Of a DNA stretch of 35,495 bases, positions 1-33,289 are shown piece by piece. Every line of letters starts with the position of its first letter. Position 1 is the first letter of the stretch. The position numbers and the translations under genes are program-made. The notes beneath the pieces are model-generated. The model made no database searches. It saw only the letters and a list, made by a program, of their open reading frames with translations, and had not been told where the DNA came from. The DNA is from a virus (taxonomy: Duplodnaviria > Caudoviricetes), in IMG/VR virus record IMGVR_UViG_3300046779_000859, positions 1 to 35,495 of that record, one strand, 5' to 3'.

Positions 1-791
1 ACACTTGGATTAAATTGACTTCCTGTATTAGTTCCTGCACCTGTATTAGTTCCTGCACCTGTATTAGTTCCTGCACCTGTATTAGTTCCTGCACCTGTAT
101 TAGTTCCTGCACCTGTATTAGTTCCTGATTGTGTAGATGCAAGCGCATTTGGGTTTGACAACATAGACTTATACGCTTCAAGCTTCATTTGCTCCAACTC
201 CTTTTGGTTAGCAAACTGCTTGTTCATCAAATCCATGTTTTGATTAAATGCAACATTTGTAGCAACACCCTGACCAATAGCACCTAAAGCATTCTGAAGG
301 TTCTGTTTGGCGGCTGTGTCTCTTGCAAGTCGAGCAGCAGATTCAGCTTGGAACTGCTGTAATTGATCCTGTTGAATACGAGTCTCTTGAGAAGCGTAGT
401 TATTCAAACCAGAAGTCAAGGTAGAAAGTCTATTAACATAATCCTTTCCAGCTGATATATCTAAATCAGACAAAGCCATACCCCTCTTCATATTCAAATC
501 AGCAATAGCACTCATTTTATCTGTTAAGCTACCACCTGCATTTCTAATGCCTGTTATAGCATTGTTTATGCTTTGATCTATCTTGTTTATGGCGGCTTCG
601 TAACCCATGGGATTACGGTTTGATGCTAATGTTCTCTGTATTCCTAAAGCCTCTTTTGCAGACTCAGGTATAGACAAATCAGGACGAGTTAAATCCTCCT
701 CACCAAGAGACTTACCAAACTGAACCCCAGACTGTATAAGTGCTGGAGCAGAAGATAATAGTGATGCTAATATTACTGGTGGTATAGGCAT
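1..791 (-). CDS. Putative internal virion (ejection/cargo) protein, 3'-truncated by the window edge
   Basis: Absent from the ORF track. ATG at 791 reads open to the edge (MPIPPVILASLIISAPALIQSGVQFG...GTNTGA repeats). Hydrophobic N-terminus, A/Q/G/N-rich helical composition, directly downstream of the tail stabilisation gene. Confidence 0.6.
   Translation of the reverse strand, partial: MPIPPVILASLLSSAPALIQSGVQFGKSLGEEDLTRPDLSIPESAKEALGIQRTLASNRNPMGYEAAINKIDQSINNAITGIRNAGGSLTDKMSAIADLNMKRGMALSDLDISAGKDYVNRLSTLTSGLNNYASQETRIQQDQLQQFQAESAARLARDTAAKQNLQNALGAIGQGVATNVAFNQNMDLMNKQFANQKELEQMKLEAYKSMLSNPNALASTQSGTNTGAGTNTGAGTNTGAGTNTGAGTNTGAGTNTGSQFNPS
22..127. repeat. 18-bp perfect tandem repeat (~5.9 copies of CCTGTATTAGTTCCTGCA) encoding (GTNTGA)n
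   Basis: Units start at 22, 40, 58, 76, 94 and 112, in frame with the minus-strand ORF. Confidence 0.97.
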
Positions 792-832
792 ATTTCTTGC
801 AAATTAAACATTAATCAGTTAATTATCAATAG

Positions 833-840
833 CAAACTTA
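833..840 (-). promoter_or_regulatory. Bacteroidota -7 promoter element (TAnnTTTG)
   Basis: TAAGTTTG on the minus strand in the intergenic gap upstream of the ORF starting at 791; -33 element not clear. Confidence 0.45.
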
Positions 841-855
841 CAAAAGTTTTAACAA

Positions 856-3800
856 TTATATTAACGCAGGACTGGGAACAAATACTACTTTGGCAGAGAA
901 TAATACTACTTTCTTATCAGTATTCTGACTTATAGTGTGTTCAAAAGCATATCCGCGTAATTGTCTACCGTTTTGTAGAGCCAATGCTGTTGTTGCTAAA
1001 TATGGGTCGGCTACGTTTACATTTAGCTTATCTCTCAAATATGCCGCCCAATAATACCCCTCTCTTAGAGATAGTATAGTGGATGGCATCTCCGTCTCCA
1101 TAACCGCATAAGACTCATTCTCATAGCTCTTAACAGAATCCACATTAAATACGGCGTTTGATCGTAATCCAAGAGTTAATGGTCTTTTAATTAACGTGCC
1201 TGACTCATTCATGATAAATGTTATAGACTGAGTTTTTTGCAAGCCGTAAAATTCTAACTCATCACCCTCGTTATGTACATAAAGTTGACCGTTTGCGTTC
1301 CATGAAACATTTACAACACCAAGCGTTTCGGCCCACATTGGATTATAGTCAACCATTGTTATCCATCTATTCCTTGAATATGAGAATACAACACCCTCTG
1401 TTTCTCTTGGTCTTTCAGTTCCATCTTTAAAACCAAAGAAGCATGTGTACTCCATGTTGCTCTCATCAATCATTGATGTAACATCATACTCAGTTATGTC
1501 GGCTGTTATTTCAGTCGCTTTATTTGACGTCCAATAATTGAATTTATATTGACCGCTTGATATATCCGACTGACCATTAGATGCAGTCCTAATAAATGCG
1601 CCTGTATAGAGGTCAAAATAGAATAAATCACCCTCAATTAACTGTACACTTCCTGGGTGTACGGTTCCAAATAGGCTGTCGTATGGATTTACACCACCAA
1701 ACACCTTATCCGTATATGCTAATTGACCCGATCCATCACCACCCGTAGCGTATGACTTTTGTATATATATTGACGTCTCCTTTCTATTTTGGAGAGCCTT
1801 CAAAGTATACCCAACCTGCTTTAGTCTATTGATTGATCCAAAGTTGTCATTTAAGTATAAGCTATTTCCAAGACCTTCAAATGAAGACAGTCCGTTTATA
1901 AAACTGTTTTGAACGTATGGAAGAGAGTGTATAATGCTTGATGTTAGATTACGTCTTTTTGCATTAATATCATCAAGACCAAATCTACCTAAACCATGAC
2001 TATCTGATTTATAATAGTCACTATAACTATAGTCCTCAACCCAGTAATAAGCATATCCTGGATATACATTGTTTATATCTGATTCAAATATTAAATAGTA
2101 ACCACTTCCACTAATACCACTTAATCCACCATAAAATAAGTATACTTTATTTGGATTAGATGATGGCTGCTCTTCTAAATAAATAAATGTTAGATTACCT
2201 GTACCAACTCCTGCTGTTGGACTTAATGGAAACCCTGGGAAGTCATTTATACTTGCATAAGGTCCTGAATATCTATATCCTGTAGTATATTCTCTACACC
2301 TTATATAAACATCTCCATAATCCAAATCAATTATTGCCGGCTGCAAGGATGTTTGGTCTTGAGTGTTTCCAGCGTGTGTTCTATTTGCAGTATGTGGGTT
2401 TAAAATAACATACCCCTCATCGTAGTTAACAGACGGATCCTGTATTTCATACCAAATCTCATCATCTTGTTGAGGTTTTGGAGTATATATCTCTATTAAA
2501 GCACCCGTAAAAGATGATATACCTTCAAATATTTGAGAGTAATCAAATTGAGATACCGTTATTGATTCTGATGGACCCCACCCTAAATCTATTCCACCAG
2601 CAGGATCATACTCAAGAACTTCTGTTTCATAATAAAAAGAACAGTAGTCTGGTTGTACATATCCAGAAGTTGATGGAGGGTTTGGAGATATGGGGGGAGC
2701 TTTAGCAACAAATCTAACTATATCACCCTTTTGAGGAGTGTGATTTATTGTTGCGCCCTCATAGTTATTTGTATAAAAATTCTCAAGAGATAATTTTATT
2801 GTATAACCACTTGATGATACCTCAGCTGCGGTTATAGATCTCTGCTGAAAATTAATCATCAACTCATCCTTTTTAACAAGGATTTGGTAGTGTGTTGCCC
2901 ATTCTGGAGGCGTATGATTTATTTCAACTTGAGCTTTTACAGTATAGGGGTTTCCTGGCTGCGTCAAAAATGATAGGTCCTCGTTGGAAGGAAACGGAAC
3001 ATCTAATTGCAACGGTATAATCTGAGAAGCTTTATATTGAACTGATCCAGATCTTAAGCCTCTATCATAATATTGTATACCAAATACTTTAGTAGAACCC
3101 TTCTTCAATGATTTAACGCACTTGTTCTCTCTAAGTATTTTTACATCATGAAAGAAGCTATCAACATCTCCATCACCCTGTGGATGCCACCATCCTGGAA
3201 CGTCTAAATATATATTCCCAGAAGTTGTACCAACAAGTGTATTTGTAACACCATCAGTATTTAAAGATGTAGATACATTACCAGCTAAATTTAACAATTT
3301 ATCTACTGGGTTTCCAACAAAAGCTATGTCAGCAGCTGTAACTTTATAGTAGTAATTTATAAGAGTAGACGGACCTGATGTTGTATTATATAAAGGGAAT
3401 ACAATCAAGTCACCTTCTACAAATTCAAATGTAAAAAAAGTATCTGTAATAGACGTAAACCTAATTATACAACTACCACCAGCACCAAATGGATTCTCAC
3501 TCCATGTTATACCTGTTGTATTATTTACTACATTAATCCTATTAATATATGGTCTTGCCAAATAATCTACGTTCTCAAGATTAGCCGTAATAGACATATC
3601 TATCTCTTCTAATAAGTCATAGTCGGCATAATAGTTTCCGTATGTGATACTATTATTTGATATTATCTCTTGACACTTAGCCACCTGTGGCATTGAGTCA
3701 TAGTTGTATTGTGTGGCGGCTGCTGGTTTGGTGGCTACATTACCATCATAAATAACGGTAGATATAGTCTCATCAGTTACCAAAGCCTGCTCCTTATCTA

Positions 3801-4707
3801 TCTCTTGAAATATAGACCAAGCTCCATTCTCTCCAACTCTTACAGCAAATCGTATTTTAGTAACGTCATACTGACCAGTGTAGTAATTTATAATTATCTC
3901 ATTATCAGTAAGTGGAGCCTCAGTGTCTCTACCAGATACATATTCATTAGTATTACTAAACGGCTGATTTGAAATCATCGACCATTTAGACTCCTCATTG
4001 TTATTATATACGTATTGATATCTAAATTGATATTGCTTACCATATAACTTATTAAAGCTTTTGTTTAAGTTAGTTTGGTATGCGGCTAATGGTTTATACG
4101 TGGGCGGACATTTTAAGGCGTCCATTGTGTGAAACGAATGATCTATTGTGTCAAAAGCTTCCACTGGATATCCCTCTGGATCAATACCAGCAGAAGACAT
4201 GTATTTAATTGCTTTTGGTATATCTATTTTGCGAGGAGGATTAAATTGAATAACTCCATTTACATCATAAAGAAAATCTTCAAAGTACCCGTCTGTCCAA
4301 TATAATAAATCATCAATTACATTAGTATGATATATTTTATGGTCAATTTGAAAATTTAATGCCTCGCCTGCATTTCCAACAGCTAAATTACCTAATACTA
4401 ATGTAATTACACTTGTATTAATATCAAACGACCATATTGTATGTAGGTTATTTGAGTTATGTACAAAATATATTATTGAATTACCTTTAATCCATTTAGC
4501 ACTACCAATAACGGTATTTACACCTGCTGGTAGATTTAAATTGTTAACTAATAAATTTCCTGGCATCGACTCTAAAGCCCCCTGATTCTGAGCTTCAGCA
4601 GAACCTGAGCGACAATAGGTAGACATTCTATAATCCCCATTTTGAAGTAGACGAGGATCATCATCGGTATTGATACCGTTTATAAATAATATATCTTTTG
4701 ATTCCAT
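856..4707 (-). CDS. Tail stabilisation / muzzle protein (P22 gp10-like, crAss-like)
   Basis: 1283 aa; N-terminal GINTDDDPRLLQNGDYR, YQFRYQYVY-x-NNEES-x-WS and FGIQYYDRGLRS motifs typical of crAss-like tail stabilisers; follows the ring-protein genes. Confidence 0.8.
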   Translation of the reverse strand: MESKDILFINGINTDDDPRLLQNGDYRMSTYCRSGSAEAQNQGALESMPGNLLVNNLNLPAGVNTVIGSAKWIKGNSIIYFVHNSNNLHTIWSFDINTSVITLVLGNLAVGNAGEALNFQIDHKIYHTNVIDDLLYWTDGYFEDFLYDVNGVIQFNPPRKIDIPKAIKYMSSAGIDPEGYPVEAFDTIDHSFHTMDALKCPPTYKPLAAYQTNLNKSFNKLYGKQYQFRYQYVYNNNEESKWSMISNQPFSNTNEYVSGRDTEAPLTDNEIIINYYTGQYDVTKIRFAVRVGENGAWSIFQEIDKEQALVTDETISTVIYDGNVATKPAAATQYNYDSMPQVAKCQEIISNNSITYGNYYADYDLLEEIDMSITANLENVDYLARPYINRINVVNNTTGITWSENPFGAGGSCIIRFTSITDTFFTFEFVEGDLIVFPLYNTTSGPSTLINYYYKVTAADIAFVGNPVDKLLNLAGNVSTSLNTDGVTNTLVGTTSGNIYLDVPGWWHPQGDGDVDSFFHDVKILRENKCVKSLKKGSTKVFGIQYYDRGLRSGSVQYKASQIIPLQLDVPFPSNEDLSFLTQPGNPYTVKAQVEINHTPPEWATHYQILVKKDELMINFQQRSITAAEVSSSGYTIKLSLENFYTNNYEGATINHTPQKGDIVRFVAKAPPISPNPPSTSGYVQPDYCSFYYETEVLEYDPAGGIDLGWGPSESITVSQFDYSQIFEGISSFTGALIEIYTPKPQQDDEIWYEIQDPSVNYDEGYVILNPHTANRTHAGNTQDQTSLQPAIIDLDYGDVYIRCREYTTGYRYSGPYASINDFPGFPLSPTAGVGTGNLTFIYLEEQPSSNPNKVYLFYGGLSGISGSGYYLIFESDINNVYPGYAYYWVEDYSYSDYYKSDSHGLGRFGLDDINAKRRNLTSSIIHSLPYVQNSFINGLSSFEGLGNSLYLNDNFGSINRLKQVGYTLKALQNRKETSIYIQKSYATGGDGSGQLAYTDKVFGGVNPYDSLFGTVHPGSVQLIEGDLFYFDLYTGAFIRTASNGQSDISSGQYKFNYWTSNKATEITADITEYDVTSMIDESNMEYTCFFGFKDGTERPRETEGVVFSYSRNRWITMVDYNPMWAETLGVVNVSWNANGQLYVHNEGDELEFYGLQKTQSITFIMNESGTLIKRPLTLGLRSNAVFNVDSVKSYENESYAVMETEMPSTILSLREGYYWAAYLRDKLNVNVADPYLATTALALQNGRQLRGYAFEHTISQNTDKKVVLFSAKVVFVPSPALI

Positions 4708-5453
4708 TAGCGTATATTAAATCCACTTGCACCATAAATGGTATCCATCACCTCATCTACAACAGGACCTTTAGCCAATATGTTAGCATCCCATAATGTA
4801 TCCTTGTATTGACGCTCCTTGTCCTTAGCCATATTAGCTAACTCAGGCTTCAACTCACACATCTGCCAAAGTAGATAATTTCTAAAAGGTTCAATATATG
4901 ATTGAGGAACTAATGTAGATCCACAAACATTCTTACCAGAACTTAGGTATTCTATTACGGCTTTGCCTGTTGGAAGAGCCTCTACAAATTGAATGTATCT
5001 CTCCGCCTCATTAACTCTGTAATAGTTTATATTAAAACCACCTCCAGCTGTATACAAAGGACCATAATATGTTCCGTTATAAAATCCTTCGGCTATCCAA
5101 AATCCACTGCCGATAGAAGCTGATTCAGCCTCTGCAATATCATTACAAATATCAGGAGTGTTATTTAATGCAATCGTATTATCAATACCCAACGTCCACA
5201 ACCTATTACCAATTTGGTATGCCACCTTTGTATATCTAATATAATCACTTGGCATCGGCCATATCTTTGTATTTGCATTTACATCAACATGGGCAGACAC
5301 AACAGATGGCATCTCGTAACCTCTTAATTTCTCTTGGTAAAATTCCAAAGCCAACTGCTCAACCCACTCATAATCACTTGTGGTATAGCCAAAGTTTTTC
5401 ATTCGGCTTATTGCTGACATTGTAATGTATGTTATGTTCTTAATTGGATCCAT
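4707..5453 (-). CDS. Tail ring / head-tail connector protein
   Basis: 248 aa; MPSDYIRYTKV and IEYLSSG motifs; position immediately before the muzzle gene. Confidence 0.65.
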   Translation of the reverse strand: MDPIKNITYITMSAISRMKNFGYTTSDYEWVEQLALEFYQEKLRGYEMPSVVSAHVDVNANTKIWPMPSDYIRYTKVAYQIGNRLWTLGIDNTIALNNTPDICNDIAEAESASIGSGFWIAEGFYNGTYYGPLYTAGGGFNINYYRVNEAERYIQFVEALPTGKAVIEYLSSGKNVCGSTLVPQSYIEPFRNYLLWQMCELKPELANMAKDKERQYKDTLWDANILAKGPVVDEVMDTIYGASGFNIR

Positions 5454-6046
5454 TATTTAGCCGGCTGTGTTGGTTTATCGGTATCTGGTACGTTATTGTT
5501 ATATGTCTCTCCAGGTTTAATTCCTGCTTGTTGTATCAACTGAACAACCATTTGAAAAATAATAGACTCCTTCCCTGGTAAGCTGATGAAAGCATCATCA
5601 TCCATTGAGTTAGGATTAGGTATCATTTCAACTGTTATATTTTCAGTTGGAGTTCCGTTAAAGTATAATTTACTACCTTGTAGGTATGTAGTTGTAAAAC
5701 AAGTTTGCGGCTTGATAATATTCATGATGTGATTCTCAATCGTACCCATTCTTGTTGGGTAAAAACAACCGTCAGAACCACTAACATAAGTTATACTATC
5801 GCTACCCATTAAAGGAGTAACCGGCAAATTAACATAATATCTTGGAGAAACACCCTGTCTCGTTAATTCATACGGAACAGATGTATCCCTCTTTCCATTC
5901 TCACTCTTATAAGCTAAATCAGTATAAACAAGACCAACCAAATAGGCGATTACTTGATATGGGTATTTACCCTTGATATCATCAGTCACATCATCGCCTG
6001 CTAGACGATTCTGTATCAATTCCACCATTTGACGTTTAGTAATCAT
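5453..6046 (-). CDS. Putative tail ring / adaptor protein
   Basis: 197 aa; overlapping stop/start coupling within the tail operon. Confidence 0.5.
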   Translation of the reverse strand: MITKRQMVELIQNRLAGDDVTDDIKGKYPYQVIAYLVGLVYTDLAYKSENGKRDTSVPYELTRQGVSPRYYVNLPVTPLMGSDSITYVSGSDGCFYPTRMGTIENHIMNIIKPQTCFTTTYLQGSKLYFNGTPTENITVEMIPNPNSMDDDAFISLPGKESIIFQMVVQLIQQAGIKPGETYNNNVPDTDKPTQPAK

Positions 6047-6765
6047 TATTGACCTTTATTTATATCTAATGTCTGCAAGTTAAATGCAGATTGAATGTTA
6101 ATAGTAAAGTATTTTACAATTAATTCCACAAGGTTGTAGTGAACAGATTCTGGCCATTCAAATTCAACGCTTTGGCTTGGTGTTCCTGCTGGTAGAACCG
6201 AGCTGTTTTGATGTACCGTTCCAGGAGGTAGATAAAATATCTCACTGTTTACGATGTCATAATCAAACACGGGATCAACAGGTCTACGTAAATATGAAAA
6301 GATTATGTTGTTAACACCAATAGGGCGTACAAGCCATTTATTGTTTTGTATTGCGGCTATTGGACGATCTAAAGATGGTGCTAATATATCTGTACCTAAT
6401 CTATAACCAAAGTCAGCTTGATTTAAGAACTCAATAGGTCTAACTTTTTCTACTGCTCCATCACAATCGTTTACATATTGAGTATAAAACGATCTAACGT
6501 AATAGTAATAATCTTCAGGTATATCCATATACCCAAATGAATCTAACTGCAAAGGTACAGATGTGCTATCTCCGATAGTCTTTACAAATGGAAGCAAATC
6601 ATCAGTTATCTCCCTCTTTTCCTCAAACACCTTGAGCAAATCATTGATCTGCTCTAAGTTAATCCACTTGATTGCCTCGTTATAATCTCTAGGAGTAATA
6701 TAACCACCATATTGGTCTTTACCAAGTTGATTATAAACCTTGTCTAATATTTCTCCTAAATTCAT
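6046..6765 (-). CDS. Tail tubular / ring protein (P22 gp4-like adaptor)
   Basis: 239 aa; KDQYGGYITP-x-DYN, IPEDY, YLRRP-x-DP and FEWPES motifs of crAss-like ring proteins. Confidence 0.7.
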   Translation of the reverse strand: MNLGEILDKVYNQLGKDQYGGYITPRDYNEAIKWINLEQINDLLKVFEEKREITDDLLPFVKTIGDSTSVPLQLDSFGYMDIPEDYYYYVRSFYTQYVNDCDGAVEKVRPIEFLNQADFGYRLGTDILAPSLDRPIAAIQNNKWLVRPIGVNNIIFSYLRRPVDPVFDYDIVNSEIFYLPPGTVHQNSSVLPAGTPSQSVEFEWPESVHYNLVELIVKYFTINIQSAFNLQTLDINKGQ

Positions 6766-6769
6766 ATAA

Positions 6770-7546
6770 TTAAGAATAAATTCTAACCTCTATACTTGCG
6801 TTGTAAATTGGATTATTAGCTAAAACTCCAGATGAGTTATATGATCTAATTAATATATAATCATTTCCATCATACCAAGCTTCAACAGAGCCTCCTGCCG
6901 CAAAAATACTCGTTCCATTTGTAATGAAAACAGCAACTTTATCAGCTGATACACCTACTAAACTTGTAAATGTTAATGTATAAATACCTGCTGATACATA
7001 TTGAGTTGATGCAGTCCCTAAATCATTTTCTAATTCAAAATTTATAGTAGGTGCGGCTGCCCCTATTTGTGTTAGGCTACCAACAAACTTAGTGTATAAT
7101 TGAACAGCCGAAGGACCCTGAGCACCCTGTGGGCCTTGAACTCCTTGTGGACCTTGCGCACCTTGAGATGCAAGTAGTGCCCAATTAGTAGCGTCTACAT
7201 CGGGAGCCAATATAGATGGTCCAACAGGATTTAGGCAAAACCAAGATGCCCCTGCATATCCTACAGCATCGTCTGCAACATAAGTTCCTGTTGTAGACCA
7301 TGCACCCTGCCAATTCAATCCAGCAGGACCTACGGGGCCAATAGGACCAGCAGGGCCTTGAACACCCTGAGGACCTTGAGGACCAGCAGGAAGTATAGAT
7401 GCAAAGTTTGAAACAGATATAATATTTCCTGTATTAGGGCTATCAACATCAACTATATTGACATAAGAGTCGGAAGGTGATGTAATACTTTGCTTTTGTA
7501 GCCCAGGCGTACTTTTTTTTAAATAAAACCAGTTTTTAATCGGCAT
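6770..7546 (-). CDS. Collagen-like fibre protein with CBM5/12-like module
   Basis: G-X-Y repeats flank NWQGAWSTTGTYVADDAVGYAGASWFC...NWALLA. Confidence 0.75.
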   Translation of the reverse strand: MPIKNWFYLKKSTPGLQKQSITSPSDSYVNIVDVDSPNTGNIISVSNFASILPAGPQGPQGVQGPAGPIGPVGPAGLNWQGAWSTTGTYVADDAVGYAGASWFCLNPVGPSILAPDVDATNWALLASQGAQGPQGVQGPQGAQGPSAVQLYTKFVGSLTQIGAAAPTINFELENDLGTASTQYVSAGIYTLTFTSLVGVSADKVAVFITNGTSIFAAGGSVEAWYDGNDYILIRSYNSSGVLANNPIYNASIEVRIYS

Positions 7547-7563
7547 GTCTTTATATTTTTAAA

Positions 7564-9600
7564 TTATGATAAATCAACTCCATATACTGATGCGCCTCCT
7601 GTTGAAATAGGATCTAATATTCCATCAGCTAATACTCCACCTGAGTTGTATGTGTATATAGTTATATATCCGTTTCCTGAGAAATAATATTTATAATATC
7701 CATAAGATGGGTCTAATGGAACAACATCATATCCACTCGCTGGAGATAAAGATACAAAATTACTTGGCGTTGGGTTGGTTGAATCATAAATAACATACTG
7801 ACCTACACCACTTCTTAAAAATGTATCATAGTTAAAGTTAGTTGTATTCCAAGATACAATTAAAACAGGGTCTGATGTTCCTGTTTGAGTTATGAAACCA
7901 TAGAATGCTTTAGCTCCTGCGGCTGAAATACCTTGTGGGCCTTGTGGGCCTTGAGGACCAACAGGACCTTGCGCTCCAGTAGGACCCTGTAATCCAGGAT
8001 CACCTTGTGGACCTTGTGCTCCAACTGCTCCATTTAATCCAGCAGGACCTTGTGGACCAACTGCTCCTTGTGAAGCTAAAAGCGCCCAATTTGTAGGGTC
8101 TGTGTCAGGTGTTGATGCAGATGGTCCAACAGGGTTAATACAGAACCAAGAAGCTCCGTTATATGCAACCGCATCATCTACAACATAAACACCACTTGGA
8201 CTCCACGTTCCTTGCCAGTTTAAACCAGCAGGTCCAACAGGTCCTTGTGGACCAGCAGGTCCAGTTGCTCCCGTTGCTCCCGTTGCTCCGGCAGGACCAG
8301 TAGGTCCAGTAGCACCTGCAACACCTTGAGGACCAGCAGGTCCAGTAGCACCAACAGGTCCAACAATTTGTGGTATAGCGTCAATTTCAGCTTGTAAATT
8401 ACTAATCTCAACAAGAAGTTGATCAAAGATTGAAGTTCCATCTTGAGATGAATTATCTACCCATGCAGGAGTATCCTCCCCTGAGCAACAATCACAACCA
8501 CATTCAACACCACTTGCATTGAGTAATTCAACCATAGCATTGTAATAGTTTGTGTATTGATCGTAATCACCACAAGCTTGAGCCTCTTTTGCTAATGGAT
8601 ACAATAATGCAATTCCATCAACGTATTTTGTATATGGGCTTGATGTTCCGCAACCTAAAGCAGCCATGTGCTTTACATATAGAGCATCAATACAATCTCT
8701 TATAGCGCAAAGAGTTCCTACACACGTAACTTGAAACTCTTTTGAAAAATCTATATTATCAGCAATACTTAATCCGTCAACTTGAGTTATAGCGGCTGTA
8801 ACTGATAAATTTGTAGTCCATGTTCCTGTCGCTAATTCAGATAAAGCTAAATTAGGATACGTAGTTGTTTGCGGATTTACTACAGGTGCAGGAACAAGAC
8901 CGTTAGGGTAATACGCACTAATCTCACGATCAATAGGCGTCCAAGAACCGTAGGCAGTTGAATCCGTAAACTCAATAGTCCCAAACTGTGTAGCTTGACA
9001 ATCGTATACGGCTGTGATATTAGGTTCTACGCGAGTACAGCCTGAATATGTATATGTCAAGCTGTTTGCTCTATTTACAATAAAGCTAAGTCCACAACTA
9101 GCATCTGTAACTAAACTTTCTGCAACAGTTATTGTTGTGATACCTGCAATGTAGGTAACAGATACAACAGTCTTAGATCCATCATTAGCACCCCCTGAAT
9201 TTAAAACTATATTATCTCCTGCTTGTAGTACATTAGATAAATCTGTTACGTTAGATGTAATTGTATTTACACCTGTAGTAGTAGCCCAACCTGTTGTAGA
9301 AAAATAATTAAAGTTTGCAGTATATGTCAAGTTATAAACGCCATTTACAATGTCCCCATTCATTACAGGAAGATTGTATGCAGGGCTTATGATTGAACCT
9401 GCTGATATATTAATTGGCGGCGTTGTAGTATTGGTCTCGGAAACAAAAGCTACTCCAGTAGGACCTGTCATTACAATAAGACCTTTTGTTGTAACAAGTG
9501 ATGTATCTACACCTTGACCGGCGTATGTAGTTTCATCTTTAACAACGACTGTATTGTTGTTTACATTAAAGGTTGTTAAAATATCGAATGTAATAGGCAT
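7564..9600 (-). CDS. Virion structural protein (hub/fibre) with Cys cluster, collagen repeats and CBM5/12-like module
   Basis: Thr-rich beta N-terminus, CGCDCC cluster, short coiled coil, long G-X-Y runs. The ATG at 9600 is preferred over the TTG at 9618, which overlaps the promoter element. Confidence 0.75.
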
Positions 9601-9615
9601 ACTCTTAGGTTTGTA

Positions 9616-9652
9616 CAAAACTAAAAAAGGTAGCCGAACTAACGACTACCTT
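9616..9652 (-). terminator. Intrinsic terminator with adjacent TAnnTTTG (-7) element
   Basis: Minus strand: AAGGTAGTCG-TTAGTT-CGGCTACCTT then a T-run; TAGTTTTG at 9623-9616. Confidence 0.7.
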
Positions 9653-9691
9653 CTAAACTATTTATTCTACTCAGTTAAAAAGTAATTGACA

Positions 9692-10648: not shown

Positions 10649-10659
10649 TGTTTTATAAT

Positions 10660-10700
10660 TTTAAAAATTAAAGGGTGGAGGCTCATCACCTCCAACCCTT
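10660..10700 (-). terminator. Intrinsic terminator/attenuator after the major capsid gene
   Basis: AAGGGTTGGAGG-TGATGAG-CCTCCACCCTT followed by TAATTTTT on the minus strand. Confidence 0.75.
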
Positions 10701-10719
10701 ATATTATAGTGATGTTGTA

Positions 10720-22231: not shown

Positions 22232-22261
22232 TTGACTTTTTATTTCTTAATCGTATATTTG
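22232..22261 (+). promoter_or_regulatory. Bacteroidota housekeeping promoter, rightward
   Basis: TTG-N19-TATATTTG. Confidence 0.8.
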
Positions 22262-22263
22262 CC

Positions 22264-22366: not shown

Positions 22367-22382
22367 AAACTGTGAGTATTAT

Positions 22383-23159: not shown

Positions 23160-23160
23160 T

Positions 23161-23370
23161 ATGGAAAACGCAAAGCAAATGGCAATCAATCTTGTAGGCA
23201 GCCACTACAAAAAAATCACATCAATAGCAGATGATGATGCAGCATACAAACAGGCAAAGGAACACGCCCTGATAACATGCGATCTAATACTTGACAACAC
23301 AAACAACCTATTTGTACGAGAGAACTTTCTAATGTATCAAGAGGTATACGAGGAGATTAAAAAATTATGA
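23161..23370 (+). CDS. Small hypothetical protein (MTPKEKA...EVKQEI family)
   Basis: ATG at 23161 directly after the initiator stop; ends YQEVYEEIKKL. Confidence 0.7.
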   Translation: MENAKQMAINLVGSHYKKITSIADDDAAYKQAKEHALITCDLILDNTNNLFVRENFLMYQEVYEEIKKL

Positions 23371-23585
23371 CAACACCGAGACAAAAGGCTATTGAACTAA
23401 TTAGTAGATTAGGATTTCAAAGCGCTAAGTTGGTAGCCTCCAACATGTCCTATGAGTTAGGATTATTAGCATTAACAGCAGACACAAAAGAACATTCTGA
23501 TGAAATTAAAGACAGAAGATTCTATTGGGACACAGTATTTGACATAATCAAAAAGGAATGGCATCAGAGAAAATTATCAATTTAG
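23367..23585 (+). CDS. Small hypothetical protein (same family)
   Basis: MTTPRQKAIELI...YWDTV; ATGA overlap. Confidence 0.7.
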   Translation: MTTPRQKAIELISRLGFQSAKLVASNMSYELGLLALTADTKEHSDEIKDRRFYWDTVFDIIKKEWHQRKLSI

Positions 23586-25273: not shown

Positions 25274-25803
25274 TTAAGGAGCTGACATCAATGGTTAAAC
25301 CACACATGGTAAACCAATTCTTAGAAACAATCATCAATAACGAATACGATAAAATAAAAGACGAAGCTATGGAAATGCTTGAGGAGATACGCTGCAATAT
25401 AGATGTTAAGCTGCATATCAAAAGATTTATGGAGGTGACTCTATCATGTTGTGCTGATGCATTTGGAACGACTGCCGATGAGATTCGCAGCCGCAATAGA
25501 CGAAGCCACATAATAGACGCAAAGAGAGCCTACATGTGGATCGTAAAGGTGTCAACAGGATGCACGCATAGATTCATAAGTGACAACTTAGAGATGCACC
25601 ACTCATCAGTTATACACCACCTCAATACAGTAGAGGCGTATCTAATGTATAACCCCGACTTTAAAACAAAGCTCAACTCTATCGTAACCGACTTAAAACG
25701 AGTTGGATACACAGAACCATCAGAGCAATTTGTTAATCATGTTAATAAAGCGGAGCAAAGAAAGAGAAGAAATAGAGACCGGATAAATAAGAATAGGTTG
25801 TAG
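25270..25803 (+). CDS. DnaA C-terminal (domain IV)-like HTH protein
   Basis: FGTTADEIRSRNRRSHIIDAKRAYMW...HHSSVIH resembles DnaA domain IV (S-x-x-R...R-x-x-x-MY...DHTTV). Confidence 0.75.
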   Translation: MIKELTSMVKPHMVNQFLETIINNEYDKIKDEAMEMLEEIRCNIDVKLHIKRFMEVTLSCCADAFGTTADEIRSRNRRSHIIDAKRAYMWIVKVSTGCTHRFISDNLEMHHSSVIHHLNTVEAYLMYNPDFKTKLNSIVTDLKRVGYTEPSEQFVNHVNKAEQRKRRNRDRINKNRL

Positions 25804-25830
25804 ATTTGTAGGCTCTAAAAACCTACAGTC

Positions 25831-25983
25831 ATGGATATAAACAACCTAAATTTTCTTAAATCACAAATCAAAGCATTTCACCCAAATTGGTCGGAGCAAC
25901 AGGTAGAAATGGAAGCCATCAGAATTATAAACTCCCCAGACGATGAGGAGGATGAAGAGGACTGTCTATACTGCGGTTCATAA
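25831..25983 (+). CDS. 50-aa protein with acidic CxxC tail
   Basis: Absent from the track; my translation is MDINNLNFLKSQIKAFHPNWSEQQVEMEAIRIINSPDDEEDEEDCLYCGS. Confidence 0.7.
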   Translation: MDINNLNFLKSQIKAFHPNWSEQQVEMEAIRIINSPDDEEDEEDCLYCGS

Positions 25984-26011
25984 CGTGTTATTATTTTTTA
26001 TTTAAAAGTTG

Positions 26012-26056
26012 TTGCACTTTTGTAAAAGTTATTATACATTTGCTGAAGTTCTTTGA
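26012..26056 (+). promoter_or_regulatory. Bacteroidota promoter followed by a boxA-like element
   Basis: TTG-N20-TACATTTG (26012-26042); GTTCTTTGA at 26048-26056. Confidence 0.7.
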
Positions 26057-26071
26057 TTAATTAAAAAAATT

Positions 26072-26218
26072 AGCTCCGTTGGCCAGGAGATCGTAAAACA
26101 CAGTAAGCCTCTTGACAATGCTCAAAGTAACTGTTCTCATCGTATAGGAGATAGAGTTAGCCTTCTCGACGTCGTTTAAAAAGGCTGACAGCTGGAAAGA
26201 CAGCCACCTTCGGGTGTA
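26072..26218 (+). ncRNA. Candidate multi-hairpin structured RNA
   Basis: Consecutive stems CTCC/GGAG, ACAGT/ACTGT, TCTC/GAGA, GTTAGCCTT/AAGGCTGAC, GCTG/CAGC and CACC-TTCG-GGTG. Confidence 0.5.
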
Positions 26219-26236
26219 ACATTTAAAATAAACGCA

Positions 26237-26623
26237 ATGAGTAAAAAGTACACGATTGAATTGTCAGAAGATCAAATGAGATTGATTGCAGACTGCATGG
26301 ATGACGTATCTCGATTTGCCTCTGGACAATGGCAGTTAAGACAGACTATTGAAGCAATGGTGGAAGGGTTGCCATTTGATGAGCAGATTAAAAGACGTAA
26401 TGAAGCTGAGGAGTTGCTAAGACAGGCTAAAAGAGTTCTTCTCCCTGACTTTGTAGACAATCAAAGCTATGGATACAACAGCACCGAGTTCATTGGAAAC
26501 TGCTATCAAATTTCTAGGACTATAATGTACCGACTAGCAATAGACAACGACTGGAACAATGTCTATTCCTCTCCAGCCTTAGAAAGTGGAACTATGGGGA
26601 CGATTAAGATTGAGCAGATATGA
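26237..26623 (+). CDS. Hypothetical protein
   Basis: 128 aa, ATG start, A-rich leader. Confidence 0.75.
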   Translation: MSKKYTIELSEDQMRLIADCMDDVSRFASGQWQLRQTIEAMVEGLPFDEQIKRRNEAEELLRQAKRVLLPDFVDNQSYGYNSTEFIGNCYQISRTIMYRLAIDNDWNNVYSSPALESGTMGTIKIEQI

Positions 26624-26838
26624 GTAGCAAAAAGCAAACCTCGGTAGACACCCTATTTGAAAGACTATGGGACACACCAAAAGACAAGTGGGAATGGAAC
26701 GCTGTACTCAAGGAGGTAAGAGAGATGCATAAGCAGGAGATGAAAGATTTGTATCTTGCTCATGTGACCAAAGCTCCTCGTTTGAGAGAAATCTTCGAGA
26801 AGCAATTTGAGGAATACTACACGAATACATTTGAGTAA
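26620..26838 (+). CDS. Small hypothetical protein (KQTAVEWL family)
   Basis: KKQTSV...EMHKQE...FEEYYTNTF; paralogue of 27093-27326. Confidence 0.7.
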   Translation: MSSKKQTSVDTLFERLWDTPKDKWEWNAVLKEVREMHKQEMKDLYLAHVTKAPRLREIFEKQFEEYYTNTFE

Positions 26839-26840
26839 TC

Positions 26841-27080
26841 ATGACACCAAAAGAAAAAGCATTAGACTTATTTTCTACATTCAGATTTGCTATATCATTT
26901 CCTAATAATCCACTTGGTGAGGATAAAGATAGAGTAGCAAAGATATGCGCATCTATGGCAGTGGCTGAAATAGAAGAAGCACTTGTGGATTATGGTAGAG
27001 GGGATTCGCTTCAACTTCAAAACATGGATTCTGAATTTAGATTTTGGGAGCAAGTAAAACAAGAAATAGAAAACCTTTAA
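26841..27080 (+). CDS. Small hypothetical protein (MTPKEKA family)
   Basis: MTPKEKALDL...AKICA...FWEQVKQEIENL. Confidence 0.75.
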   Translation: MTPKEKALDLFSTFRFAISFPNNPLGEDKDRVAKICASMAVAEIEEALVDYGRGDSLQLQNMDSEFRFWEQVKQEIENL

Positions 27081-27092
27081 AACTAAATAACT

Positions 27093-27326
27093 ATGGAAAA
27101 GAAACAAACTGCGGTTGAATGGTTAGCTGAACAATTAGTGCCAAAGGCTATGCTTACCTATGATGCTATAACTTATAATGCTATTCAACAAGCCAAGCAA
27201 ATGGAGAAGGAGCAACATTTTGAATCATATAGACAAGGTAACGTCTTCTTAGACTCTGACTCACTTAACTTTAAAGGTAGTTTTGATGAATACTACAACG
27301 AAACATACGGAGGTAACAATGAGTAA
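27093..27326 (+). CDS. Small hypothetical protein (KQTAVEWL family)
   Basis: KKQTAVEWL...QAKQMEKEQ...DEYYNETYG. Confidence 0.75.
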   Translation: MEKKQTAVEWLAEQLVPKAMLTYDAITYNAIQQAKQMEKEQHFESYRQGNVFLDSDSLNFKGSFDEYYNETYGGNNE

Positions 27327-27591
27327 TTGGATAAGCGTAAAAGAGGCACTGCCAAAATCTATAAATGATGAGTATTATTATAGCGAAAATGTTTGGGTGC
27401 TTTGCGACAATGAGGTAATGGTAATGAGATTGGTCTTAATACAAGATGATGATGGAGATTGGGCTTGGTTATGGGCAAATTGCTATGGAAATGTTTTTGG
27501 AGATGGTAAAGTGGATGATGATTACGAAGTAACACATTGGATGCCATTAGAAATTCCACAAAATTTAGGAGGTCAAGATGAAAACCCGTAA
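27319..27591 (+). CDS. DUF551-like protein
   Basis: MSNWISVKEALP...VTHWMPL; start moved to ATG 27319. Confidence 0.8.
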   Translation: MSNWISVKEALPKSINDEYYYSENVWVLCDNEVMVMRLVLIQDDDGDWAWLWANCYGNVFGDGKVDDDYEVTHWMPLEIPQNLGGQDENP

Positions 27592-27946
27592 ACATCAATG
27601 GTTCTGTGAAAAAACAAAAGTTGCTCAAGCATACACTATACCTTGTGTTGGCTGTGATTTTACTTGTAAGAATGTAGTACGTCAATCTAAATCTCATGTT
27701 ATAACCAGAGCTAAACGTAAAGCAATATTACAACGTGACCGTAAAAGGTGTACACAATGTGGTAACACAGAAAAATTAACTGTAGACCATTTACTTCCTA
27801 TTTGTGAAGGGGGTAAAAATGATAGTTGGAATCTTACTACTTTATGTCATGCTTGTAATAACAGTAAAGGAGATAAACTGGTAGATAAATTCTTGAAGTT
27901 ACGGTTTAATCAACGGTACGGAATTAAAACTTACATGGGATGGTAG
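27578..27946 (+). CDS. HNH endonuclease
   Basis: RD-x-x-x-CTQCG...LTVDHLLP...GG...NLTTLCHACNNSKG. Confidence 0.92.
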   Translation: MKTRKHQWFCEKTKVAQAYTIPCVGCDFTCKNVVRQSKSHVITRAKRKAILQRDRKRCTQCGNTEKLTVDHLLPICEGGKNDSWNLTTLCHACNNSKGDKLVDKFLKLRFNQRYGIKTYMGW

Positions 27947-28071
27947 AATTATTTTGGATTATTTTTAAAGAACCTTTTAGAATGGTCAACGATTTTATGT
28001 TTGGAGATAACCATCATATCGTATCTGAAAGAGGTTGGAAAATATTAAATAACAATAAAAGGTCAAGATGA
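27940..28071 (+). CDS. 43-aa hypothetical protein
   Basis: Absent from the track; fills the gap and overlaps both neighbours (MVELFWIIFKEPF...). Confidence 0.5.
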   Translation: MVELFWIIFKEPFRMVNDFMFGDNHHIVSERGWKILNNNKRSR

Positions 28072-28361
28072 AAAGTAAAAGACTCACAGAAGAAGAAATG
28101 CTAATAGAAATAATAAACACAATGTTTCTTATAGCTGGTCATGATGCAACATACGAAGATGTCAAAGGTCGACAAGACAACTGGTACAACCAATGGACCA
28201 TGACTCCTGAGCAAGAAAAGAAGTGGATGGAGTGGATGATCTCCTACTACCGTAAGAATAAAAGAATGACAATAAGCTACGCAAAAAGAGCCGCAGCATG
28301 GACAAACCTAATGTGGGGACTAACCGTAGTACAACCATTAATAGAACAGGAAAATGAGTGA
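28068..28361 (+). CDS. Hypothetical protein (Trp-rich)
   Basis: 97 aa, translationally coupled in the operon. Confidence 0.75.
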   Translation: MKSKRLTEEEMLIEIINTMFLIAGHDATYEDVKGRQDNWYNQWTMTPEQEKKWMEWMISYYRKNKRMTISYAKRAAAWTNLMWGLTVVQPLIEQENE

Positions 28362-28560
28362 CATAAGCAAGTGTTCGGGTGAAGGATGCCCACACAAAGA
28401 AAAGTGCTACCGATTCACAGCACCAGCTGACGAGTACCGACAAGCCTATTTCGCAGAGCCGCCAATCAAAGACGATGGATCATGCGATATGTTCTGGGGA
28501 CAGACACAAACAGACATCCTATCCCAACTAAAAGAAATAGTACAACAGAAGCCTCAATAG
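28354..28560 (+). CDS. Small Cys-rich putative Zn-binding protein
   Basis: DISKC-x4-CP-x4-CYRF...CDMFW. Confidence 0.75.
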   Translation: MSDISKCSGEGCPHKEKCYRFTAPADEYRQAYFAEPPIKDDGSCDMFWGQTQTDILSQLKEIVQQKPQ

Positions 28561-28925: not shown

Positions 28926-28941
28926 CGTTTCACGTGGAACA
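28926..28941. promoter_or_regulatory. parS: parS site 1 (one terminal mismatch)
   Basis: CGTTTCACGTGGAACA versus consensus TGTTTCACGTGAAACA / TGTTCCACGTGAAACA. Confidence 0.8.
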
Positions 28942-29044
28942 TCAAAACAGGCAGAACATAGTGTGGAGGGGGTCATATATACACATGGGACGCATACATC
29001 GGTGGGCAAACTGCTTTTTTGCGAATGGGGTGGGGTTCTAGTTA

Positions 29045-29798: not shown

Positions 29799-29814
29799 TG
29801 TTCCACGTGAAACA
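29799..29814. promoter_or_regulatory. parS: parS site 2
   Basis: TGTTCCACGTGAAACA. Confidence 0.88.
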
Positions 29815-29852
29815 AGCTGTATACCTATATTAAATAGTGCTCGGCGCCGATG

Positions 29853-29868
29853 TGTTCCACGTGAAACA
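29853..29868. promoter_or_regulatory. parS: parS site 3
   Basis: TGTTCCACGTGAAACA. Confidence 0.88.
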
Positions 29869-30343: not shown

Positions 30344-30365
30344 TTCTGGCGGCTATTCAATTTTC

Positions 30366-30393
30366 AAGGGGGGCTTCGTGCCCCTTTTTATTT
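30366..30393 (+). terminator. Intrinsic terminator
   Basis: AAGGGG...CTTCG...CCCCTT followed by TTTATTT. Confidence 0.75.
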
Positions 30394-30410
30394 ACCTTAA
30401 AATTAAACTT

Positions 30411-30695
30411 ATGTTTAAAATATCACATTTTATCACAGGTGAACGTAGAGAAAAATCAAAAGGGTTCACTATGGAATTTGAAAACGGCAACACGATAAGC
30501 GTTCAATTCGGTCGCGGTAACTATTGCGAAAATCGAGACGATTCAGAAGGTAAACACTATTCAGCAGATGCTGAAATAGCAATATGGAATACCGAAAACA
30601 AATGGTACGACTTCGGAACTGATACGGTCAAAGGCTGGTGTACACCCGATGAGGTCGCTAAATGGATTCACTTTGCATCAACCACAAAATTCTAA
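30411..30695 (+). CDS. Hypothetical phage protein
   Basis: ATG at 30411; FENGNTISVQFG-x-GNYC...AEIAIW...VKGW-x-TPDEV. Confidence 0.8.
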   Translation: MFKISHFITGERREKSKGFTMEFENGNTISVQFGRGNYCENRDDSEGKHYSADAEIAIWNTENKWYDFGTDTVKGWCTPDEVAKWIHFASTTKF

Positions 30696-30711
30696 TGTTC
30701 CACGTGAAACA
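30696..30711. promoter_or_regulatory. parS: parS site 4
   Basis: TGTTCCACGTGAAACA immediately after a stop codon. Confidence 0.88.
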
Positions 30712-30743
30712 ATTAATCAAGTATAACCATAAAAACAAACAAC

Positions 30744-30947
30744 GTGAAAAATCTAATCAATCAATTCTTAGTAGTGTTGCTATATGCAATGCTATTTGCG
30801 TTCACATACGCATCAATTTGCGGCTTAGTTGCCCTAATATTTTGGACAAGCTACATAAGTGTGGCAACTTATCCAGCTTCGATACTCATACTCATAGTGT
30901 CGGTTATATGTGTTGGATGTTACAACCTTTGTAAACTTAAATTCTAA
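30744..30947 (+). CDS. Small membrane protein
   Basis: GTG start, two hydrophobic segments. Confidence 0.65.
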   Translation: MKNLINQFLVVLLYAMLFAFTYASICGLVALIFWTSYISVATYPASILILIVSVICVGCYNLCKLKF

Positions 30948-30951
30948 GGCA

Positions 30952-31125
30952 ATGAAGAAAGTAAACTTCTATGTAGTCATGTACCTATTAGCCATGACTT
31001 TTGCGGCTGCGTGTTTAACGTGTTGCACACCATCAAAGAGTTCTGTTAACCCATGCGAACACTTTGTAAACAAGGGGCATAAACAAAATGCCCATGACCT
31101 GCTACCATATCATAGAAACAATTAA
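30952..31125 (+). CDS. Small putative lipoprotein
   Basis: MKK, hydrophobic stretch and LTC-C lipobox-like site. Confidence 0.55.
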   Translation: MKKVNFYVVMYLLAMTFAAACLTCCTPSKSSVNPCEHFVNKGHKQNAHDLLPYHRNN

Positions 31126-31136
31126 AATCAAATAAC

Positions 31137-32384
31137 ATGGAAGAAGAAAAAACTCCAGAAACAATCCTCCTATACAACGGAGAAGAAGTCAGCACCGACA
31201 CAACAACGGGTTGCTTTGACTATGGTCAATATCAAGGCCAACTATACGCCGATGGTGATGATGATGTTATCATCTTGACAAGTGGTGATACATGTCACAG
31301 CGATGATGATTGGCACACCACAAATTGCGGTGATACATTCCACGAAGATGAACAGGACAGCCTTGACATAATCTTTGCGGACTATGATGGTGAGTACGCC
31401 TATTCATCAGATTGTACCTATGGTATAGTAGACCGTAGGGGTCATGAGGGGTATTGGTTAGACACATATCATGACCATGAAGCCGTATATTCAAATAGAG
31501 ATAGCATTCATTTCATTGACTCACAAGTAGCACGTGAACGTGACTACATCTTTGATGATAATCAAGACGATTGGGTACACATAGATGATTATGAGGGTGA
31601 TAATGATGATGATGAGGGTGAGGATACGTCCTCTTATGTTAAGTCATATCATGGCTATTCAAGACAGTTTGTTTGTGACTCTTCGGCGGCTTGGAGGTTT
31701 GGTGTCGAGGTCGAGAAGGAGGACTACGATGCTAAGACCATGGAGTACCCCGATACTATATACAACGCTGTCAAGTGGTGTAAAGAATCGGACGGGTCTC
31801 TCAATGACTACTCTGGCTTTGAGTTGGTGTCGCCCGTGTATGACCTCATGGACAAGGGTACTTGGTTGCGTGACTTTTCGAACCCACTTATCGAACCGCT
31901 ACTCAATGCTAAACATAGTTCATCATGTGGTGGTCACATCCACATATCATCAAGTATGTATACACCTGATGAGATTATGTTAGGACTTAGCGGCTTCCTA
32001 CCTATACTGTACAGCCTTTACAAGAGACGTATGTTTGCCGACTACGCACGTACTAAGAAGAAGTATCAGTACCTAACTGAGAAAACTAAGAGGGCGAGTG
32101 TATATGTGCAAGATAGGACTTGTGAGTTCCGTATCTTCCCTGCTGTACGTAGTAAGGATAACTTGATATGGCGGCTTGACCTACTACGCATCTTCATTGA
32201 CAACTTCAATGCCTCTGAGCGTGATGTCCTCAAGATGTTGTGTAATACATCACACCCCCTTCATATTCATATCAAGAATATGGTTGGTGATGATAAAATG
32301 ACTGAGAAGATTGATGAGTTCATCGGCTTCAGTAAGACGTGGAATAACTTTAATTTAGATAATGACGATAAAACAATCAAATAA
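31137..32384 (+). CDS. Putative amidoligase (COOH-NH2 ligase, Amidoligase_2-like) with acidic N-terminal region
   Basis: FGVEVE, ESDGSL, FELVSP, SCGGHIH and TCEFR motifs. Confidence 0.88.
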   Translation: MEEEKTPETILLYNGEEVSTDTTTGCFDYGQYQGQLYADGDDDVIILTSGDTCHSDDDWHTTNCGDTFHEDEQDSLDIIFADYDGEYAYSSDCTYGIVDRRGHEGYWLDTYHDHEAVYSNRDSIHFIDSQVARERDYIFDDNQDDWVHIDDYEGDNDDDEGEDTSSYVKSYHGYSRQFVCDSSAAWRFGVEVEKEDYDAKTMEYPDTIYNAVKWCKESDGSLNDYSGFELVSPVYDLMDKGTWLRDFSNPLIEPLLNAKHSSSCGGHIHISSSMYTPDEIMLGLSGFLPILYSLYKRRMFADYARTKKKYQYLTEKTKRASVYVQDRTCEFRIFPAVRSKDNLIWRLDLLRIFIDNFNASERDVLKMLCNTSHPLHIHIKNMVGDDKMTEKIDEFIGFSKTWNNFNLDNDDKTIK

Positions 32385-32386
32385 TT

Positions 32387-33289
32387 ATGTGCATAGCAAT
32401 CTTAAACCCTGAAGATGTTACTCTTGATAAGAGTGTTCTTCGCACGTGTTGGGACAATAACACGGATGGAGCTGGTATTCTATACGTAGATGGCGGCGTC
32501 CTAAAAACACACAAGGAGATGTCTAACTTTGATTCATTCTATGATGAGTATCTACGTATACGTAGTGCTCACAAGGAGTCTCAAGTAGTCATACACTTCC
32601 GTATATCTACACATGGCAAGGTCAATGAGACTAACTGCCACCCATTTATTGTAGATGATTATTGGGGTTTTGTGCATAACGGTATCATATCCAATGCACC
32701 ACACCACGCTGATTACAGCGACACCTATATGTTTAATCAAGAGGTACTTCAAAAGCTACCTAAGGATTGGTTATTCAATGACGCCATCTATGAACTTGTT
32801 GTAGGTTACATTGGCTCATCTAAGTTGCTGTTTCTTAATGCCGACAACGATGCCTATATTCTTAACGAAGATATGGGTGTGTGGGACTTAGGCTGTTGGT
32901 TTAGTAACAAGACGTACAAAGAGTCACGCTACTTTGACTATGGCGGTAAGCAGGTATGGAAGTCGGCGGCGACGCCTACTATCACCTCCTCCTCTACTAC
33001 TAAAGATTATTCTACTAAGTGGTGGGACCGTAGTGATTACTCACCTAAGTGGGTGTGGGATGATAAGAAAAAAGATTATGTTAACAAGTCGGCGGCTGCG
33101 GATGTTTTTGATGATGAGGATGTGGATGTGGACAACTACCCACAAACCGAGTGGCCAACTGATGCGTCTGAGTTATTCATAGACACTTGCGATGGCTGTG
33201 ATTCTCCAGAGGTGCTTGTCGCCTACGATACATCATACAACGCTTGCCTATGTAAAAGCTGCCACGATGATTTGTACACACCCTTTTAA
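32387..33289 (+). CDS. Class II (Ntn) glutamine amidotransferase with C-terminal CxxC...CxxC
   Basis: N-terminal MC, N-x-DGAG, HFRISTHG, NCHPF, HNG and SDT motifs. Confidence 0.92.
   Translation: MCIAILNPEDVTLDKSVLRTCWDNNTDGAGILYVDGGVLKTHKEMSNFDSFYDEYLRIRSAHKESQVVIHFRISTHGKVNETNCHPFIVDDYWGFVHNGIISNAPHHADYSDTYMFNQEVLQKLPKDWLFNDAIYELVVGYIGSSKLLFLNADNDAYILNEDMGVWDLGCWFSNKTYKESRYFDYGGKQVWKSAATPTITSSSTTKDYSTKWWDRSDYSPKWVWDDKKKDYVNKSAAADVFDDEDVDVDNYPQTEWPTDASELFIDTCDGCDSPEVLVAYDTSYNACLCKSCHDDLYTPF

Follow-up and report, generated by a model that had tools for sequence, protein, structure and literature searches.

Polar words are known in several phages as Chi sites, including the lambdoid LLS, Pseudomonas MD8 and P1 cases (Zheng et al. 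2025, PMC12315714), and short template sites have been described for primases of the T7 gp4, SP6 and plant Twinkle type (PMC10557236). Here we consider the word AGCCGC in a Caudoviricetes virus contig, IMG/VR record IMGVR_UViG_3300046779_000859, analysed over its full 35,495 bases (hereafter the window; 38% GC and ~54% complete). The window covers part of a freshwater podophage genome of ~66 kb (the complete genome of a sister phage, G001, has 66,069 bases), and the runs holding sequence that matches the window are mostly freshwater or lake metagenomes. On the evidence of selection, polarity and clade restriction, AGCCGC is a selected, strand-specific signal. We tentatively favour, at close to an even chance, a reading in which replication proteins encoded by the phage itself recognise it, most probably the T7 gp4/Twinkle-like primase-helicase, which would use it as a lagging-strand priming site.

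As with LLS, MD8 and P1, this is one short word, at least 20-fold enriched, present at about 1 per 1.8 kb, directed at what is probably a genome end, denser near that likely end and in excess of codon use. Unlike those cases, with their one active strand, it has opposite polarity in two arms, with the switch near the replication initiator gene; the clade has RecET genes of its own that contain the word; no matching host word was found among the Bacteroidota genomes sampled; and the word is C-rich in its end-pointing sense. Set beside the T7 gp4, SP6 and plant Twinkle sites, the phage enzyme is of the same family and the word would lie on the lagging-strand template in both arms. Template specificity in T7 and plant Twinkle primases is set by the zinc domain (PMC10557236), which here differs between word-bearing and word-free clades. 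The known sites, however, comprise 3-4 bases with cryptic 3' bases, and those of T7 are not polar. Also comparable are the Pachyviridae, Pervagoviridae and Elemovirus podophages of Flavobacteriia (PMC8776804), which have homologous terminase and portal (21-24% identity) and small early genes after a non-coding region; they are too distant for family membership, and the two whose DNA was examined, Gundel and elemoE, have 1 copy of the word each. Terminase and portal are 21-29% identical to their counterparts in Flavobacterium, Cellulophaga, Tenacibaculum and Maribacter podophages, and from this distant likeness the host is probably a Bacteroidota.

The 7-mer AGCCGCC/GGCGGCT occurs 20 times in the window (1 per 1.8 kb), with the G-rich form on the + strand in 16 copies and on the - strand in 4 (13898, 21869, 22837 and 28457). 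None of 100 dinucleotide shuffles reached this count, and against their mean of 0.77 the enrichment is ~25-fold; an earlier sequence-only reading had expected under one copy per strand. All 15 of the + strand positions listed in that reading are exact, with one further copy, 33777, overlooked; its six reverse sites all carry AGCCGC, although three of them (24370, 25489 and 28289) continue with A and are not the 7-mer, and the copy at 25107 had been missed. The core of the signal is the 6-mer AGCCGC/GCGGCT, with 28 copies on + and 10 on - against 4.4 expected under an order-2 Markov model, or ~9x chance; in DNA of 38% GC, ~2 copies per strand would be expected in the window. Within it a five-base core is strict, while the flanking base on either side is preferred but not needed. 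AGCCGC or an overlapping word heads the window's lists of 5-, 6-, 7- and 8-mers. A collagen-linked octamer was set aside on inspection as deriving from tail-fibre repeats.

The 6-mer divides into three blocks: 18+/3- over 1-21.7 kb, where genes on the - strand encode virion proteins, portal and terminase; 0+/7- over 21.8-28.5 kb, within a segment (21.8-28.6 kb) holding the single-strand DNA-binding protein (SSB), the replication initiator, the primase-helicase and a DnaA-type helix-turn-helix (HTH) protein; and 10+/0- over 30.3-35 kb, among small early genes, including an amidoligase and a glutamine amidotransferase, that follow a non-coding region at 28.6-29.9 kb. Codon use was controlled by within-gene synonymous shuffles (n = 3000), run on the three blocks separately. 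Copies in the main orientation exceeded the shuffles throughout (18 vs 2.4, 6 vs 0.85 and 9 vs 1.2; p ≤ 0.0003 each), whereas the opposite orientation stayed at background (4 vs 1.9, 0 vs 0.01 and 0 vs 0.4). The sites occupy all three reading frames. The + strand is the coding strand at both 22.8-28.9 kb and 29.1-35.5 kb, yet the word flips from 6/0 in the first to 0/10 in the second, a contrast ranking 1 of 2016 hexamer pairs. Survival of the shuffles in all three blocks, together with this flip, upholds the earlier argument that Ala-Ala codon bias is insufficient.

The polarity makes most sense when placed against the likely origin and ends of the genome. The initiator genes of the window and of a more distant phage, G272, have the same layout of short repeats followed by an A-rich tract, which we take to be that of the lambda origin; by this analogy the replication origin is probably at ~22.7-22.8 kb, inside the initiator gene. 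For the ends, Gundel, whose terminase and portal are homologous to those of the window, has a predicted (PhageTerm) 322-bp terminal repeat in the non-coding region directly before its small early genes (PMC8776804), and this analogy together with a conserved G-rich element makes genome ends at ~29 kb likely. Assembled contigs from 8 runs showed neither an end nor a depth step, and 29 kb is spanned by contigs. On this placement of origin and ends, AGCCGC would read from origin to end in 34 of the 38 copies; the copy at 21869, left of the likely origin, is an exception. Both the switch near a putative origin and the ends near 29 kb had been proposed from the sequence alone, and both gained support here. 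The AGCCGC strand would then be both the lagging-strand template and the strand on which Chi acts when an enzyme enters at an end, so that geometry cannot separate these readings.

The same layout was found with another word. Words directed away from the initiator were sought in 12 genomes and scored on polarity and enrichment. Only AGCCGC, in the window (polarity z 8.0) and in G007 (z 5.2), and CCCCG, in G272 (z 8.4), led on both; the remaining 9 genomes had nothing comparable, the nearest being CGGGTA in G266 (z 6.0). G272 has a primase 52% identical to that of the window and a different gene order, so the switch near the initiator is repeated in another gene arrangement: CCCCG stands at 27/56 to the left and 16/4 to the right of the initiator, ranking 2 of 512. 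It is 5-fold enriched and runs away from the initiator in the layout of AGCCGC, with which it has a CCG core in common. A close sibling of G272, L329, has 40 CCCCG copies vs 13.3 expected (29/11).

Among relatives, 13 of 22 terminase loci (86-97% identity) are word-rich and 9 (83-86%) are not. Block polarity recurs in G002, G006, G007, G010 and L042 and is absent in the sister genomes G001, G003, G004 and G005. Of the window sites that could be aligned, 15 of 16 are kept in G007 (45% for GC-rich control hexamers) and 12 of 14 in G010 (control 50%), while G002 keeps 6 of 19 (control 16%) and has 7 of its 13 sites elsewhere; this contrast indicates that density is selected and that individual sites turn over. 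At the corresponding residues the codons of the sister phages differ. Several other candidate words were rejected. GAGGCT in G003 follows the coding strand, as do ACCGCC in G271, GCGGTT in lillamy and GGTATT in elemoE. TGTCGG/CCGACA in the sister clade was a post hoc pick that did not lead in a later scan and is a lead only; CCGACA points away from the initiator in 13/13 copies in G003 when the layout of the window is assumed; in G001 and G005 the pattern is less clean, and G004 does not have it. Separately, CCGTG and GCCGTG are strongly enriched in G264 (220 vs 96 and 75 vs 25), which has a different primase type, on both strands and with no polarity.

Reading by the phage's replication proteins would work as follows. 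The genome would be linear, with replication starting inside the initiator gene (~22.7 kb) at an origin of the lambda kind; of the two forks, one would cover ~6 kb before meeting the end at ~29 kb, and the other would have ~60 kb to go before reaching the far end. In both arms AGCCGC(C/A) would run 5'-3' in the fork direction, on the strand along which a gp4-type helicase moves and from which its primase reads. A site of 5-7 bases, rare by chance, would be written into genes at synonymous positions, giving the ~1 per kb observed. The neighbouring DnaA-type HTH protein may be an alternative reader or a loader, and is ranked second after the primase.

We counted in favour of such a role that word orientation tracks the initiator and not the coding strand. 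The phage encodes a primase of the expected kind, with zinc domain, TOPRIM and helicase. All 10 records with a primase 78-98% identical (L038-L047) carry the word, four sister genomes with a primase 60-62% identical do not, and a loop of the zinc domain differs between the two groups. Across the records compared, the word follows the replication module. G003 has the clade's early module and its parS-like sites, yet a sister primase and no word. The HTH protein is 57-99% identical inside the word-bearing clade and 21-24% identical to the sister clade. No family A DNA polymerase was found in the 5 related records searched. The lack of skew in the sampled host chromosomes and the word-free early block of G425, both described below, count on the same side. 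An AlphaFold model of the primase, built on a 5-row alignment, was of low confidence (mean predicted local distance difference test score 61) and contributes no evidence. It is possible, though we consider it unlikely, that the gp4/Twinkle-like primases of a Bacteroidota podophage family start at long words particular to each lineage (AGCCGC in this phage, CCCCG in G272), and that the phages have these words written into the genes of both arms.

A number of observations weigh against the replication-protein assignment. Described gp4/Twinkle sites have 3-4 bases (PMC10557236), and a 3-4 base core with one or more cryptic 3' bases would be expected, whereas here the invariant core is 5 bases with preferred flanks and internal single mismatches are not enriched, which is long and strict for a primase. 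The priming pentamers of T7 itself are enriched only 1-2x and are not polar (64 vs 41, 30 vs 15, 25 vs 24 and 18 vs 17). The switch does not coincide with the probable origin in the window and G006, falling 0.9-1.7 kb or more to its left, and in G006 and L042 the right arm has copies of both orientations close to the origin. G002 contains a reversed stretch at 21.8-29.2 kb, among tail and ejection-type genes (8 reversed, 3 forward), and word gaps of 5-6 kb. Density rises to 1.7-2 per kb beside the likely end in the window, G002 and L042, but not in G007, against ~0.4 per kb in the interior of G002, a gradient that fits end processing better. No strong word turned up in the sister clade, whose primase is 60% identical; its candidate, CCGACA, is weak, with no flip in G004. 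It also should be considered that the origin and ends are inferred, and that the tracking of word by primase is confounded with the whole lineage, as is every correlation of this kind.

The alternative that survives best, and the one the sequence-only reading had chosen, is that AGCCGC(C) mimics the Chi of a host AddAB enzyme, end-pointing copies taming the entering nuclease and interior copies aiding repair of collapsed forks. We regard this as possible but rather doubtful. The word is asymmetric, short and over-represented beyond codon use; its 7-mer density is near those of LLS (1 per 1.86 kb) and P1 (1 per 1.90 kb) (PMC12315714); the core is strict with end variants tolerated; and sites turn over with density kept (6/19 in common with G002). 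If the ends lie at ~29 kb, as the analogy with Gundel would have it, the C-rich strand has its 3' end toward the entry end, and density peaks beside that point in 3 of 4 genomes. Bacteroides fragilis has AddAB, and its Chi was unknown in 2010 (PMC2887965). On the other side, the words in PMC12315714 are G-rich, whereas the geometry here needs the C-rich strand. Chi-rich lambdoids in that source are mostly without a Rec module, with no Chi near it when one is present. The LLS class is marked by having no exonuclease/annealase module, whereas G002 encodes DUF3799 (PD-(D/E)XK) and RecT, with homologs in G007, and these RecE- and RecT-like genes contain the word.

Host chromosomes and gene-sharing phages told further against Chi. 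Counts of the word and of its reversed control were compared in Bacteroidota genomes, first 251 and later 401 in largely overlapping samples, and strand skew was scored in 14 genomes, mostly ones with a high word-to-control ratio, through 60 stretches of 20 kb; five high-ratio genomes with a zero control count were outside this sample. The G-rich form was unskewed in 14/14 of these genomes, a sample that may not include the true host. In three single-contig genomes, where GC skew changed sign at the parS-like site as expected in 27/28 stretches bar three (G096 at 1200 and 1400 kb; G051 at 1000 kb), it stood at 23/32, 56/53 and 42/41 on the leading/lagging strands. A lead in G207 (61 vs 39-42 expected; 25/36) faded to 23/20 in three of five further stretches, and three congeners of G207 had word-to-control ratios of 0.9-1.4. 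A word at 9/0 in G096 did not hold on more DNA, and an all-plus orientation in the host-genome counts was a listing artefact (G014 was mixed) and was not used. As a separate observation, G123, G147, G335, G383 and G430 (5/401) contain 0-1 copies of the reversed control in 2.4-4.7 Mb, where other genomes have tens to thousands, which is near-total avoidance of that word.

The phage G425 has one gene 100% identical to that of G002, a tail protein at 90% and an endolysin at 89%, which suggests that the two have a host in common, and its early block has no copy of the word; the G425 contig does not include its primase. G267, with one gene 91% identical to that of the window, has the word at 10/10 vs 5.8/4.7 expected and is not polar. 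Among 81 loci scored, 80 of them with the same endolysin family, strong enrichment was confined to the clade's own (G007); L186 and L205 were mildly enriched. Such absences do not settle the question, since phages with a nuclease inhibitor would need no Chi. Searches for the host found 8 distant loci in unrelated metagenome-assembled genomes by terminase profile search of genome contigs, 18/401 Bacteroidota genomes matching the tail DNA only in short stretches over a collagen-like repeat region, none of the 401 with the SSB at E 1e-8, and, in a metagenome scan, one irrelevant locus. Together these results lower the Chi assignment rather than refute it. Literature searches found no report of AGCCGC as a phage word or of a Bacteroidota Chi; among the matches listed for the four word forms, nearly all concerned the plant GCC box and none phages or Chi. 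A search of 5 records for the AP2 domain gave no match, nor did its positive control.

A Chi-like role private to the phage, in which its own RecE-like exonuclease (DUF3799) or a partner reads the word, limiting end resection and building concatemers, is improbable. The RecE-like and RecT genes are present and clade-specific (nuclease 79-95% identical within the clade, 54-58% to the sister clade), and such a role would account for the end-pointing, the terminal gradient and the absence from hosts; it leaves the switch near the initiator unexplained, however, and the sister clade, though it has this enzyme family, lacks the word. We know of no sequence-regulated RecE/Exo.

We give similarly little credence to a host translocase or defence signal, that is, KOPS-like words guiding FtsK toward ~21.5 kb, or a restriction or methylation site kept in one orientation. 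The G-rich strand does converge on 21-22 kb from both sides, and the parS-like sites mean that the clade carries host chromosome signals. KOPS, however, would be expected to converge on dif and to be skewed in the host, and neither a dif-like match near 20-22 kb nor any host skew was found. Many palindromes are avoided in the window and restriction pressure is real, but the opposite orientation of the word is at background and not depleted, which indicates gain and not avoidance, and a DNA methyltransferase gene was found in one clade record only, L042. Codon-pair bias or a compositional artefact, to which 13 of 18 left-arm copies in one frame (mostly X-Ala-Ala) and the words of z 8-12 that merely track the coding strand in cultured Flavobacterium phages might point, is largely refuted by the shuffles, the flip relative to the coding strand, the use of all frames, the one intergenic copy, the differing codons of the sister phages and the retention of sites in G007 and G010.

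The features of the window are collected in Table 1.

Table 1. Coordinates of the word arms, candidate readers and associated features in the window
Feature	Position	Strand	Remarks
Left arm, structural genes	309..19742	-	18 AGCCGC on - strand; 3 reversed copies at 12276, 13898 and 16780 (background level)
Terminase large subunit	15683..18100	-	Defines the clade; ~24% identical to Elemovirus terminases; Pachyviridae and Pervagoviridae phages also among matches
Single-strand DNA-binding protein (DUF3127)	21794..22147	-	PHROG 4932, PF11325
Right arm, SSB and replication block	21869..28463	+	7 AGCCGC on +, 0 reversed
Replication initiator (lambda O / DnaD-like)	22383..23159	+	PHROG 11233, E 9e-37
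Likely origin	22700..22830	.	Within initiator gene: short repeats, then A-rich tract
T7 gp4/Twinkle-like primase-helicase, N-terminal Cys4 zinc domain	23558..25273	+	Candidate reader
DnaA C-terminal-type helix-turn-helix protein	25270..25803	+	Possible reader or helper
parS-like palindrome, 1 mismatch	28926..28941	.	
G-rich element	28954..29032	.	Conserved in 6/6 aligned genomes, two without the word; candidate terminase cut / genome end
Two parS-like palindromes (29799, 29853)	29799..29868	.	
Early-gene block	30348..34976	-	10 AGCCGC on - strand, toward likely end; densest part of the window (1.7 per kb)
parS-like palindrome	30696..30711	.	

Several further elements lie by the likely genome end. 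The parS-like cluster flanks it in the window and in G002 (1373-2402, 5 sites), and is present in G007, L042, L043 and G003; such sites are missing from G001, G004, G005 and 10 more distant records. In the corresponding non-coding region of G001 (56.3-56.8 kb) about eight copies of another 18-base near-palindrome replace them. None of the 5 related records searched had a ParB gene, and a cluster with no ParB of its own suggests use of the host's ParB. The same parS-like 16-mer occurs near the GC-skew switch of three Bacteroidota chromosomes. Three 24-base direct repeats (29041-29113) and a two-copy inverted-repeat element (29120-29232), the latter also in G002, G003, G007 and L042, are probable protein-binding sites by the end.

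The copy of the word at 30348 is intergenic and is present in G002 too. Variant contigs from three runs, with a swapped upstream gene, rejoin the window sequence at 30347 (feature 30347-30389), which is the position of this intergenic copy and of a terminator behind it. Elsewhere in the window, the metallophosphoesterase at 19568-21415 exceeds its G007 and G003 counterparts by ~320 aa and contains an insert, intein-like by inspection, and the non-coding stretch before the initiator (22270-22360) has complementary segments and a terminator-like hairpin, possibly a regulatory RNA, with no match in Rfam. PADLOC returned no match among 14 proteins. CTAG is strongly avoided across the whole window (22 vs 185 expected) and several hexamers are wholly missing, including the non-palindromic GGGAAA (0 vs 13); this avoidance is a restriction footprint potentially useful for finding the host.

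Novel features are a word arranged in two arms around the likely origin of a Bacteroidota podophage that carries RecET, a cousin in which a different word takes up this layout, and test results pointing away from the host. Should AddAB prove to be the reader, AGCCGC(C) would become a candidate for the Bacteroidota Chi that was still missing as of 2010 (PMC2887965). The pattern also maps the probable origin and likely ends of an uncultured phage. If the primase reads the word, this would be a primase site long enough to shape the synonymous codons of a whole genome, and pairs of word and zinc domain from metagenomes would become a specificity code. If lineage-specific primase words hold true more widely, then primase specificity, origin and genome ends would be readable straight from genome sequence.

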